Below, in pieces: positions 24,444 through 25,394 of a stretch of 64,000 nucleotides of DNA. A model generated the notes under the pieces. The model had not been told where the DNA came from and ran no database searches. It saw nothing but the letters and a program-made list of their open reading frames with translations. Where the stretch lies: the NCBI GenBank assembly GCA_015063885.1, contig SVTH01000001.1:91182-155181 (forward strand), in the 5' to 3' direction. The translations under genes and the position numbers were made by a program. Source of the stretch: Oscillospiraceae bacterium. GTDB lineage: Bacteria; Bacillota; Clostridia; Oscillospirales; CAG-382. The first letter of the stretch is position 1. Every line of letters starts with the position of its first letter.

Positions 24444-25394
24444 GTGGCTGTGAACGAGTACAAGAGCCTGAAAAAGAAAAATAACGGCGTTTTCGGCGTT
24501 CTCATGGCCTTACTTCTCCTTTTTGAAGTATGCGCCCTGGTGATGCTTGGGAGCCGCCTTTCTTTGTTTTCCAAAGGTTCTTCCCGCAACGTCTTTTCCC
24601 TGATCCATTCCGACGCCCGTACCACCGTGCGGGTCGGCTATATGGATGACCAAGGGCAGATCATCTTCCCGGAGACCACCGCAACCCTTCCCGTGGCTCC
24701 TTCCACTCTGTCTGTGTTCCGCCCCCTGGAGGAATCCTCTCAGGAAAAGGTACCCGGCTACCAGGTCACCGACGGCAACACCGTTTGGCAGGGTACTACC
24801 AATGTAGAGATCTTCAAGATTTCCTACGAAAACGGGGAAGAGAAGATCACCGTGGACGGCGGCACCGAGAAGGTCATTGCCCCCGGCACGGAGAATCAGT
24901 ACGCCTTTACCCTGGATAATTCCGGCGAATACGCCTTGGATTATACCCTCACCATCAAAGCCTTCTTTGGCAACGAGGAATACGCCATCCCCGTCACCGC
25001 CCGCCTGCGCACCGCCGACGGCAGCTACGCAGTAGGCTCCGAAACCTCCTTTGAGGACGTCCTGGAGCTGAACCGTGTCCAAGAGGAAAGCGCCCTGGGT
25101 GCAGGCAGACAAGCCACCTATGTCCTGGATTGGCAGTGGGCATTTGAAGGGGACGACCAATACGACACCCTCCTGGGCAATCTTGCCGCCGCAGGAGAAG
25201 AGCTTTCTTTGACCATCACCATCGAGACGGTTGCCACCCAATGCGCAGACCAGGATTGCACCAGCGGCGATATCCCGCCCACAGGTGACGACAATTCCAT
25301 CCTGTGGTGGCTCCTGGCGTCCATCGTGGCAATGGGCGGCATTTACGTCGTCCTCCAGTCCCGCAACCGCCGTCCTATTGATAACGAGTTATGA
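24444..25394 (+). CDS. TasA-like domain protein with C-terminal sortase sorting signal (IPPTGD)
   Basis: Start moved to GTG 24444, after AAAGGAGGA. N-terminal KKKNN plus TM plus SLFSKG. IAPGTEN and DWQWAFEGDDQYDTLLGN...LSLTITIETVATQ are homologous to the C-terminus of 23589-24290. Then IPPTGDDNS plus hydrophobic helix plus SRNRR. Confidence 0.6.
   Translation: MAVNEYKSLKKKNNGVFGVLMALLLLFEVCALVMLGSRLSLFSKGSSRNVFSLIHSDARTTVRVGYMDDQGQIIFPETTATLPVAPSTLSVFRPLEESSQEKVPGYQVTDGNTVWQGTTNVEIFKISYENGEEKITVDGGTEKVIAPGTENQYAFTLDNSGEYALDYTLTIKAFFGNEEYAIPVTARLRTADGSYAVGSETSFEDVLELNRVQEESALGAGRQATYVLDWQWAFEGDDQYDTLLGNLAAAGEELSLTITIETVATQCADQDCTSGDIPPTGDDNSILWWLLASIVAMGGIYVVLQSRNRRPIDNEL

Follow-up and report, generated by a model that had tools for sequence, protein, structure and literature searches.

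The window, a 64-kb stretch of DNA, contains a conserved cluster of eight genes in the order SipW1, A, B, SipW2, C, D, E, F. The gene under study, B, is the third of these. The features of the cluster and of the B protein were located as follows:

22349..23080, forward strand: SipW1, a SipW/archaeal-type signal peptidase I and the first gene of the operon (TIGR02228, E 2.1e-30; NF046067 SipW, E 5.5e-26)
23589..24290, forward strand: subunit A, 233 aa, candidate major subunit (3518 homologues, conserved motifs)
24303..24339, forward strand: 14-bp GC-rich hairpin between A and B (RNA fold -41.2 kcal/mol, z = -2.95)
24450..25394, forward strand: B, putative anchor subunit, 314 aa from GTG 24450 (alternative GTG 24444)
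24450..24551, forward strand: N-terminal basic n-region KSLKKKNN of B and a 21-residue hydrophobic segment (from sequence)
24591..24764, forward strand: N-terminal strand region of B, residues ~48-65, followed by a low-confidence linker, residues 66-105 (AF2)
24765..25241, forward strand: beta-sandwich domain of B, residues 106-264, homologous to subunit A (BLASTP, hhalign, Foldseek)
25272..25289, forward strand: sorting motif I-P-P-T-G-D of B, residues 275-280 (conservation in 101 homologues)
25299..25373, forward strand: hydrophobic segment ILWWLLASIVAMGGIYVVL of B (residues 284-302) and basic tail RNRR (residues 305-308)
25391..25960, forward strand: SipW2, a second SipW-type signal peptidase (TIGR02228, E 2.9e-22)
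25980..26504, forward strand: subunit C, a paralogue of A (hhalign, family consensus)
26535..27101, forward strand: subunit D, a minor paralogue (hhalign; weak TIGR04090 match, E 0.004)
27128..32026, forward strand: giant secreted protein E, 1632 aa (Pfam Flg_new, TIGR02543)
32045..32632, forward strand: subunit F, of the BsaA family, with the SipW-type N-terminus VYAYLSASTNTVSNSF (TIGR04090)
32642..32668, no strand assigned: bidirectional intrinsic-terminator-like hairpin at the operon end, with a stem of 11-12 bp followed by a T-rich tail

Clostridia of the rumen and gut yielded the same cluster in about 80 genomes. Breznakia sp. PF5-3, a cultured organism, carries it as well (locus L083). 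A and B were adjacent in every locus, SipW2 followed B in essentially all of them, and the block A-B-SipW2-C was retained in loci where E was not detected. The start of SipW2 overlaps the stop codon of B by 4 nt, and the two genes were fused into a single open reading frame in P0254 and L057. A SipW-type setting had been proposed from the sequence, and B is indeed flanked by two signal peptidases of this type, both of them short (189 and 243 aa).

Subunit A, for which the AF2 model had a pLDDT of 80.7, carries SGTFAKYVT...ARVAKWGV at its N-terminus and TVTQID at its C-terminus, with no anchor. Similarly, subunit C contains SGLYARYT...ARVAKF near its N-terminus and ends in TQID. Junctions of the G-[TL]-[FY]-A-[KR]-Y type were found in A, C, D, and F. 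In subunit F, which scored 13 bits against TIGR04088 (cut-off 19), the residues N41, E55, and K65 were nearly invariant. Protein E is composed of Listeria-Bacteroides repeats, a Cys/His-rich region, a C-terminal SpaA-like domain, and a conserved tail, NWLSDETVNENQF. The tail motif was present in 30 of 34 E orthologues and a sorting signal in none of the 34, and E is a candidate tip adhesin. The hairpin between A and B could act as an attenuator or an mRNA stabilizer that sets the A:B ratio.

A promoter-like site ahead of SipW1 separates the cluster from a co-oriented pilus locus just upstream (15048-22117) that encodes a class C pilus sortase (19750-20601). This enzyme was the sole sortase within the window and falls outside the conserved cluster; neither a motif search nor phmmer identified a sortase of class A or class B in the 64 kb. 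Given this neighborhood, B might be taken for a pilin of the upstream pilus that is polymerized by the class C sortase, which is exceedingly improbable: the pilus locus is missing from the other clusters except L082, where it is divergently oriented, its pilins carry LPETGG and LPGTGG, and B contains neither a SpaA/Cna-B pilin domain nor a match to the pilin motif. The separate promoter-like site of SipW1 also argues against it. The upstream locus was rejected as a part of the system because it was missing from other loci. A downstream type IV pilin-like gene was rejected as a partner as well, since none of the other clusters has it nearby and it comes with a promoter and a terminator of its own. 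Neither the long gap between SipW1 and A nor the window as a whole contained a c-di-GMP riboswitch or any other Rfam element, and the cluster showed no two-component system.

The relatives of B included 115 close homologues and 498 representatives at the 50% identity level (E<=1e-30). An AGGAGG ribosome-binding site is located upstream of GTG 24444, and GTG 24450 is the likelier start, because MN[ED]YKSL opens all homologues. The hydrophobic segment near the N-terminus may serve as a signal peptide or as a signal-anchor. The N-terminus was not matched by the SipW-signal model TIGR04088; it has a long hydrophobic segment and an SRL..F motif. In the AF2 model, residues 5-47 form a single helix, the strand region has a pLDDT of 84-88 with a short strand at residues 58-65, and the linker that follows spans roughly 45 residues at low confidence. 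As modeled, the N-terminal part is no separate folded domain, being made up of the long helix, the short strand, and the linker, and residues ~48-65 are a candidate for a self-complementing or donor strand on a tether. Conservation within the B family was 0.41 for the strand region, 0.25 for the linker, and 0.64 on average for the beta domain.

The beta domain of B is homologous to subunit A. The two proteins shared 24% identity across 179 residues (BLASTP E 1e-6), and their family profiles were aligned by hhalign over 147 columns with a probability of 99.4% (E 1.8e-21), which bears out the homology to the product of 23589-24290 that had been noticed from the sequence. The strings on which that observation drew (IAPGTEN, DWQWAFEGDDQYDTLLGN, LSLTITIETVATQ, and CADQDCTSGD-IPPTGD) were all present in the forward-strand translation of 24444-25394, and the motifs VIAPGTEN, W.W.FEGDD.YDTLLGN, and LTI.I.T.A were common to the B domain and A. 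The chain of profile similarities extended from A to C (99.7%, E 1.2e-26), from C to D (97.6%), and from D to F (94.7%). As 34 of 41 F orthologues matched TIGR04090, the model of the BsaA family, with a best E of 6.6e-12, this chain ties B and A indirectly to the BsaA family.

Direct assignment gave a different picture, as neither B nor A was placed in any family by Pfam and NCBIfam scans. B had no match to the curated TasA/BsaA models PF12389 (Peptidase_M73), TIGR04088, TIGR04089, and TIGR04090, none of 101 B-family members matched the Pfam camelysin-type models, and none of 41 A-family members matched the NCBIfam TasA/BsaA models. A profile search against PDB sequences found nothing. TasA has a jelly-roll/beta-sandwich fold (PDB 5OF1/5OF2 and 8AUR). 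With Foldseek, the AF2 model of B matched TasA 5of2 weakly, at rank 27 (probability 0.97, E 7e-3), the best E for the A model against the PDB was 0.05, and the matches of both models were weak and of a non-specific beta-sandwich kind. The sequence-only reading had called the domain TasA-like. This description may be kept on the basis of the transitive profile chain to the BsaA-family paralogue F and the weak fold matches, while a direct family match was not obtained. In addition, B lies next to a SipW-type peptidase gene, as is characteristic of the TasA/BsaA superfamily, and this pairing was kept in about 80 loci.

The C-terminus of B appears to be a cell-wall sorting signal. Translation of 24444-25394 gave the order CADQDCTSGD-IPPTGD-DNS-ILWWLLASIVAMGGIYVVL-QS-RNRR-PIDNEL, in which IPPTG occupies residues 275-279 of 314, at the distance of 30-40 residues from the C-terminus that is usual for sorting signals. 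It is followed, as in sortase substrates, by a hydrophobic stretch of 19 residues (helix 283-306 in the AF2 model) and a positively charged tail (SRNRR). The signal itself had been predicted correctly, and among 101 homologues P276 (0.97), T278 (0.95), G279 (0.97), and D280 (0.98) were conserved, making x-P-x-T-G-D the best-conserved segment of the family, above the beta domain. Its register, which had been given as PPxTG, has to be corrected to I-P-x-T-G with x = P. Of 82 orthologues taken from genome loci, 72 matched a strict sorting pattern, the remainder being mostly near variants, as did 111 of 145 distant representatives, in addition to near variants; the hydrophobic stretch and a K/R tail were present in nearly all homologues. 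Judged on sequence, the combination of IPPTGD, hydrophobic segment, and basic tail is a sorting signal and no chance match. The most common motifs in the family were PPQTGD, SPQTGD, PPKTGD, and NPKTGD. The peptides SGDIPPTGDDNS and GITPPQTGDNS are candidate sortase substrates.

The curated LPXTG model TIGR01167 scored 12.7 bits on the isolated B tail, below its cut-off of 15.9, and PF00746 (Gram_pos_anchor) had no match in B itself and matched 21 of the 101 family members, with E as low as 1e-4. Additionally, a close subclade carries TPVLGD, with Leu where the scissile Thr is expected, so that sortase cleavage may not be universal in the family. Together with the TIGR01167 score, the frequent lack of an adjoining sortase gene, and the membrane-anchored BsaA oligomers of Clostridium perfringens strain 13, this subclade would suit a plain membrane anchor at the B C-terminus, in which PxTGD is a juxtamembrane motif that no sortase cuts and the fibre is tethered to the membrane. 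Such an anchor is nevertheless quite unlikely, given that the P/T/G/D residues are 95-98% conserved at a fixed spacing to the hydrophobic segment and the K/R tail, as in a canonical tripartite signal, that SLH wall-binding domains can stand in for the sorting module, and that sortase B genes repeatedly adjoin the cluster.

The distribution of anchors and sortases varied among the loci. B was the sole anchor-bearing protein among the six secreted proteins of the cluster, and no anchor was found in A, C, D, E, or F. In some B orthologues, three SLH domains substitute for the sorting signal, while the position in the operon is unchanged. A class B sortase gene (TIGR03064, E 1e-38 to 1e-58) adjoined the cluster in nine loci, all outside the 64-kb window: in seven of the 39 loci that could be assessed it directly followed F, and in two more it preceded SipW1. 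No adjoining sortase was found in most loci. The B motifs in the sortase-B-adjacent loci were mostly PPxTGD, in agreement with the (S/P)PxTG specificity of Clostridioides difficile SrtB (PMC4155245; PMC4591827). The C. difficile SrtB substrates CD2831, CD3246, CD2537, and CD3392 belong to the same (S/P)PxTG class as the commonest B-family motifs, whereas their passenger domains are unrelated to B, and B itself, with IPPTGD, has an LPxTG-like register unlike theirs. The sortase for B is probably of class B in much of the family.

With a sorting signal conserved at its end, B is probably the subunit through which a TasA/BsaA-type fibre is attached to the wall. This agrees with the sequence-only reading of B as a basal subunit on peptidoglycan, which was favored by each element open to checking. 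On a narrow balance of the evidence, we favor a reading in which B sits nearest the cell in a heteropolymeric surface fibre made by the eight-gene operon and anchors it to the wall. The subunits would leave the cell via Sec, undergo processing by the operon's own pair of SipW-type signal peptidases, and be joined by donor-strand complementation, as for TasA and BsaA fibres. The bulk of the fibre would consist of A, with C, D, and F in minor or adaptor roles and E, which has 1632 aa and no anchor, as an adhesin at the distal end. A sortase encoded outside the window would then cleave B between T and G and join the Thr to peptidoglycan, a linkage that would fix the entire fibre to the wall. Donor-strand assembly, fibre polarity, sortase cleavage, and peptidoglycan linkage are what we infer for the B system. 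In the favored version, B would be the last acceptor, its beta domain receiving the N-terminal strand of the final A-type subunit. In line with the base-growth model for BsaA, B would then end the fibre as well as anchor it, as the basal pilin does in sortase pili. The conservation of the beta domain (0.64) but not of the N-terminal strand (0.41), which is unlike the ARVAKWGV of A, fits an acceptor role.

The opposite polarity would make B a TapA-like initiator, anchored to the wall by its C-terminus and donating the strand at ~48-65 to the first A, with growth of the fibre at the tip. In its favor, the initial TasA donor strand is proposed to come from TapA (PMC9674648), AF2 places a strand confidently near the N-terminus of B with a long, flexible linker behind it, and SipW2, which is translationally coupled to B, could free such a strand. 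We consider this polarity unlikely, as the weakly conserved B strand differs from that of A while the TapA N-terminus resembles the donor strand of TasA, the conserved part of B is an acceptor-type beta domain, and no SipW-type signal is recognizable at its N-terminus. Alternatively, B could be a wall-anchored docking protein outside the A-type polymer, working alone as an adhesin of its own or for E only by accepting its tail. E has no anchor and ends in a conserved, strand-like tail, WL.GE..N.N.F, which the intact beta domain of B could take up. The closest relative of B in sequence is A, however, the two being neighbors in every locus, and loci lacking a detected E keep A-B-SipW2-C, which leaves a docking role improbable.

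The proposed anchor subunit was compared with those of known systems. [quoted passage not shown] Like B, the BsaB-like protein is a TasA/BsaA-superfamily paralogue whose gene neighbors those of the major subunit and a SipW peptidase, and it carries an LPXTG-type signal; a class B sortase gene is nearby, as it is for B in some of the other loci. In contrast, BsaB and B belong to different sequence families, the B family having no TIGR04090 or Pfam camelysin match, and the operon described here is larger than sipW-bsa, having two genes for SipW, five paralogues, and, where sipW-bsa encodes the VWA protein BsaC, a giant adhesin.

Bacterial loci of AbpX, a member of the TasA superfamily, also encode accessory proteins with LPXTG or SLH anchors, for example in Clostridium amylolyticum (A0A1M6GRE1) and Natronincola (A0A1I0A0H4), and for the LPXTG proteins AF3 predicted donor-strand complementation with the fibril subunit (bioRxiv 10.64898/2026.01.04.697558). 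The alternation of LPXTG and SLH anchors is shared with the B family, while the AbpX loci differ in having a 10-TM signal peptidase I and a DUF5305 accessory protein where SipW-type enzymes of 189 and 243 aa are found here.

In the tapA-sipW-tasA operon of Bacillus subtilis, TapA is, as proposed for B, a minor accessory protein at the cell wall in a SipW-dependent fibre system, where it links fibre and cell and affects assembly. TapA is held non-covalently and lacks a sorting signal, and B showed neither sequence similarity to the TapA (YqxM) family nor a match to TIGR04087 in the NCBIfam scan. The body of B resembles the major subunit while its N-terminus does not, a point on which TapA differs. 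B is therefore at most a functional analogue of TapA. In sortase pili, basal pilins of the SpaB and RrgC type are the last subunits to be incorporated, and the sortase moves them to peptidoglycan, which ends and anchors the fibre. Those pili consist of isopeptide-joined Cna-B/SpaA pilins, whereas the fibre proposed here would polymerize by donor strands, with a sortase acting at the anchoring step only.

Taken jointly, these features may represent a hybrid, third route to Gram-positive pili that is common in uncultured rumen and gut Clostridia, a tentative proposal that we regard as conceivable though doubtful. Donor-strand exchange triggered by SipW would polymerize the subunits, to which the BsaA-like F possibly adds an isopeptide lock, and the giant adhesin would join by a C-terminal, not an N-terminal, donor strand. 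A sortase, of class B in many lineages, would capture B as the single LPXTG acceptor, ending growth and fixing the fibre, and B would be re-tooled with SLH domains where the wall is of the S-layer type.

A link between the SipW and sortase pathways is not new, as two preprints have proposed it already. The B family is a new, unannotated family of wall-anchored TasA-superfamily-type subunit, of a kind that had been predicted. The family, which numbers about 500 clusters at 50% identity and has one wall anchor per operon, for which sortase signal and SLH domains are interchangeable, offers a natural test case for how TasA/BsaA-type fibres are attached to Gram-positive cells. If the proposed role is true, sortases would terminate and anchor pili that they do not polymerize, thousands of "hypothetical" proteins of rumen and gut Clostridia would gain a function, and there would be a handle on how these bacteria display adhesins of 1600-2500 residues.

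The protein termed B here is encoded by the third gene of a compact cluster, in which all genes lie on the same strand:

22172-22242, promoter-like sites
22349-23080, + strand, SipW1, a SipW/archaeal-type signal peptidase (TIGR02228, E 2e-30)
23589-24290, + strand, A, cluster gene 2, the candidate major subunit
24450-25394, + strand, B, cluster gene 3, the target of this analysis
25391-25960, + strand, SipW2, a second SipW/archaeal-type signal peptidase (TIGR02228, E 3e-22)
25980-26504, + strand, C, a further candidate subunit
26535-27101, + strand, D, a further candidate subunit
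27128-32026, + strand, E, a secreted protein of 1632 aa
32045-32632, + strand, F, a further candidate subunit
32642-32668, strong hairpin terminator

This gene order was kept in 80 fetched genome loci, obtained from 133 matches in a one-genome-per-species collection, and was also seen on metagenomic contigs. Nearly all carriers were MAGs from rumen or gut, assigned to Oscillospiraceae, Ruminococcus, Lachnospiraceae, and "Eubacteriales"; the isolate Breznakia sp. PF5-3 was also a carrier. A Ruminococcaceae MAG encodes a copy of A that is 100% identical and is annotated only as a hypothetical protein. SipW2 followed B in essentially all loci and overlaps its stop codon by 4 nt (25391-25394), and a single fused B-SipW2 ORF occurred in two database entries (P0254 and L057:3608-4634). 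The overlap, the constant position, and the fusions suggest a functional coupling of B and SipW2; the fused ORFs could be frameshift artefacts. Additionally, the gap between A and B contains a stable, GC-rich hairpin of 14 bp without a clear U-tract (24303-24339; -41 kcal/mol for a 116-nt region, z = -2.95), which may adjust how much anchor is made relative to the major subunit.

Translation of 24444-25394 (+) agreed with the sequence-only reading, in which B had been described as a TasA-like domain continuing into an IPPTGD sorting signal. After a basic and hydrophobic N-terminus comes a central block that contains IAPGTEN, DWQWAFEGDDQYDTLLGN, and LSLTITIETVATQ, and the C-terminal part consists of CADQDCTSGD-IPPTGD-DNS, a 19-residue hydrophobic stretch (ILWWLLASIVAMGGIYVVL), and QSRNRRPIDNEL. 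The GTG at 24444 is preceded by an AGGAGG site. The GTG at 24450, from which residues are numbered here, is the likelier start because MN[ED]YKSL opens all homologues. The claimed homology to A was borne out by pairwise BLASTP (E 1e-6, 24% identity over 179 residues) and by comparison of the two family profiles (99.3-99.4% probability, E 1.8e-21, 147 columns corresponding to B residues 120-266), with a local repeat in agreement, and it is therefore considered real. A (24273-24290) and C (26487-26504) share a conserved C-terminus, ...T(V)TQID, where Q231 of A is invariant and D233 is at least 90% conserved; B has the T.A.Q position in common with them and then runs on into a stalk and the sorting signal.

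The finding is strongest for the sorting signal. Among 101 aligned homologues, P276, T278, G279, and D280 of B were 95-98% conserved. The six-residue motif had a mean conservation of 0.75, compared with 0.64 in the beta domain, 0.41 in the N-terminal strand region, and 0.25 in the linker. Of 82 orthologues taken from genome loci, 72 showed a strict pattern of x-P-x-T-G-[DEG] followed by a hydrophobic stretch and K/R, and the other ten were mostly near variants, such as VKTGD, PPNTGA, and PPGTSD. When 1.84 billion representatives were searched with the B profile, 498 clusters passed E<=1e-30; 145 were inspected, and in nearly every one the C-terminus showed ..T-G-D followed by a hydrophobic stretch and then a basic tail. 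The most frequent family motifs were PPQTGD, PPKTGD, SPQTGD, and NPKTGD, which places them in the (S/P)PxTG class that C. difficile SrtB recognises (PMC4155245, PMC4591827). While the signal itself stood, the PPxTG register assigned to it earlier was slightly off, because B and its nearest relatives have I/L-P-x-T-G-D. Curated anchor models were borderline, with TIGR01167 scoring 12.7 bits on the B tail against a cut-off of 15.9, and Pfam Gram_pos_anchor matching 21 of the 101 relatives and not B itself. One point against an anchored fibre is a close subclade (P0011-P0015; L007, L009, and L011; 52-57% identical to B) where TPVLGD or TPELGD replaces xPxTGD. These proteins have Leu at the scissile Thr position and retain the hydrophobic segment and basic tail, such that sortase cleavage may have been lost or its specificity may be unusual.

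Among the six secreted cluster proteins, only B carries an anchor of any sort: A and C end at the conserved TQID, D and F are without hydrophobic tails, and a sorting signal was found in none of 34 E orthologues from these clusters. In orthologues P0113-P0115, with a beta domain 42% identical to that of B (E 4e-31), the place of the sorting signal is taken by SLH domains, three in number (E 1e-31 to 1e-37); the gene order is the same at locus L004. Two unrelated wall-binding modules have thus been exchanged at one position. Class B sortase genes (TIGR03064, E 1e-38 to 1e-58) were located directly downstream of F at seven of the 39 loci that extend far enough past it, and directly upstream of SipW1 at two additional loci; B proteins at loci with an adjoining class B sortase mostly carry PPxTGD. 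The sole anchor in B, the SLH exchange, and the sortase adjacency support wall anchoring. Against it, most loci lack a linked sortase, and the 64-kb window yielded no sortase of class A or class B. Likewise, C. perfringens strain 13 is without an LPXTG paralogue, and its BsaA oligomers are membrane-anchored, not wall-anchored (PMC11580942).

A complete sortase-assembled pilus locus (15048-22117) lies directly upstream of the cluster:

15048-17897, VWA/GBS104-like tip pilin with LPGTG
17971-19677, SpaH/EbpB-type major pilin with LPETGG
19750-20601, class C sortase

Two further proteins are encoded there. One, a Cna-B protein of 312 aa, has a hydrophobic stretch and RRK in its tail, where the motif is degenerate (MGNPGDAGN); the other, of 194 aa, gave a faint sortase-like match and lacks the catalytic Cys motif. 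Such neighbours occurred at one other locus only, and the pilus locus is not part of the conserved system.

The TasA-like assignment of the domain was not upheld by direct searches; the link runs indirectly through the other subunits. The Pfam camelysin and NCBIfam SipW-substrate models matched neither B nor A nor members of their families, a profile search of PDB sequences gave no match, and DUF7507 gave only weak matches in half of the B family. With AF2 models of moderate quality (pLDDT 76.8 for B and 80.7 for A), a Foldseek search of the PDB with B listed TasA (5of2) 27th (probability 0.97, E 7e-3), amid generic beta-sandwiches. For A, only sub-significant matches were obtained; among them were chaperone-usher pilins and, from the TasA superfamily, the fibres TLP-1b, Tafi, and cannulae. 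The missing family-model matches and the weak fold evidence both count against an anchored fibre. Better evidence was provided by a chain of profile-profile matches within the operon (B-A 99.3%; A-C 99.7%, E 1e-26; C-D 97.6%; A-D 96.6%; D-F 94.7%), and 34 of 41 F orthologues matched TIGR04090 (best E 6.6e-12), the BsaA family of SipW-dependent matrix proteins. Because the chain runs B-A-C-D-F and F falls in TIGR04090, B belongs to a divergent paralogue set with a recognisable BsaA-like member, and the label TasA-superfamily is reasonable but indirect. F is the sole cluster protein recognisable as BsaA family. Its N41, E55, and K65 are nearly invariant among orthologues (alignment A3), reminiscent of the N35-E56-K74 intermolecular isopeptide triad reportedly shown in C. 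perfringens BsaA, with different spacing.

We propose that the operon would produce a fibre assembled by donor-strand complementation. The bulk of it would consist of A, because the same kind of search returned 3518 homologues for A and 115 for B; C, D, and F would be present as minor subunits, E as the distal adhesin, and B as the cell-proximal subunit, joined to peptidoglycan by a sortase. In the TapA model, the first strand is donated by a wall-associated protein (PMC9674648), whereas growth in the BsaA model takes place at the base of the fibre, where the newest membrane-tethered subunit takes the strand of the previous one and SipW then cleaves (PMC11580942). We favour BsaA-type polarity with B as the probable terminal acceptor, because its conserved part is the beta domain common to A, its N-terminal strand is weakly conserved and does not resemble the invariant ARVAKWGV of A, and the anchorless E has a conserved C-terminal tail that could fill the distal groove. 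This tail (31970-32026; NWLSDETVNENQF in the window) follows a SpaA-like domain, shows the pattern WL.G[ENH] (...N.F) in 30 of 34 E orthologues from L001-L084, and resembles the SipW-substrate N-terminal junction/donor-strand motif of F, YAYLSASTNTVSNSF. It could act as a C-terminal donor strand in the groove of the most distal subunit. E also contains a dense Cys/His-rich stretch at residues ~530-740 (28700-29350) with HTHGPEC, CHTHSADCYVCG, HAHTSCPLGKCTHTAH, and HVHGEGCFSCGEDHEHNDSC, which is unusual for a protein outside the cell; the stretch could bind metal or form a disulfide-rich module.

Just past the operon terminator, a type IV pilin/pseudopilin-like gene (32805-33176) with the N-terminal methylation motif KGFSLVELIVV has its own promoter-like site and terminator; it was absent near all other clusters examined. 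Its position is curious because, in C. perfringens, secretion of BsaC/BsaA is reportedly aided by type IV pilus proteins. Cell-surface functions also occupy the remainder of the window (43182-53706 on the - strand; 35258-38654 and 53970-63650 on the + strand), including a BspA-type LRR protein of 2539 aa, a subtilase-LRR protein of 991 aa, and two polysaccharide biosynthesis blocks with a DegT aminotransferase, a sugar transferase, GT4, and EpsG. The block at 56-62 kb is low in GC (0.39-0.45).

To our knowledge, covalent wall linkage of such anchors has had no experimental demonstration to date. The principle is not new, as the concept is already in print as a prediction. According to Kivimaki et al., LPxTG proteins and sortases often occur near BsaA/TasA-family genes; these authors described a bsaB-like gene with an LPXTG motif adjoining srtB in most C. 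perfringens strains and speculated that its product fixes BsaA fibres to peptidoglycan (PMC11580942). Similarly, a 2026 preprint on AbpX described bacterial abpX loci with SLH- and LPXTG-anchor proteins, the latter predicted by AF3 to undergo donor-strand complementation with the fibril (bioRxiv 10.64898/2026.01.04.697558). The observation made from the sequence alone is confirmed, and its interpretation, that B is a basal subunit attached to the wall, is supported at the computational level. B represents a family that is new, unannotated, and quite large, and its kind had already been predicted.
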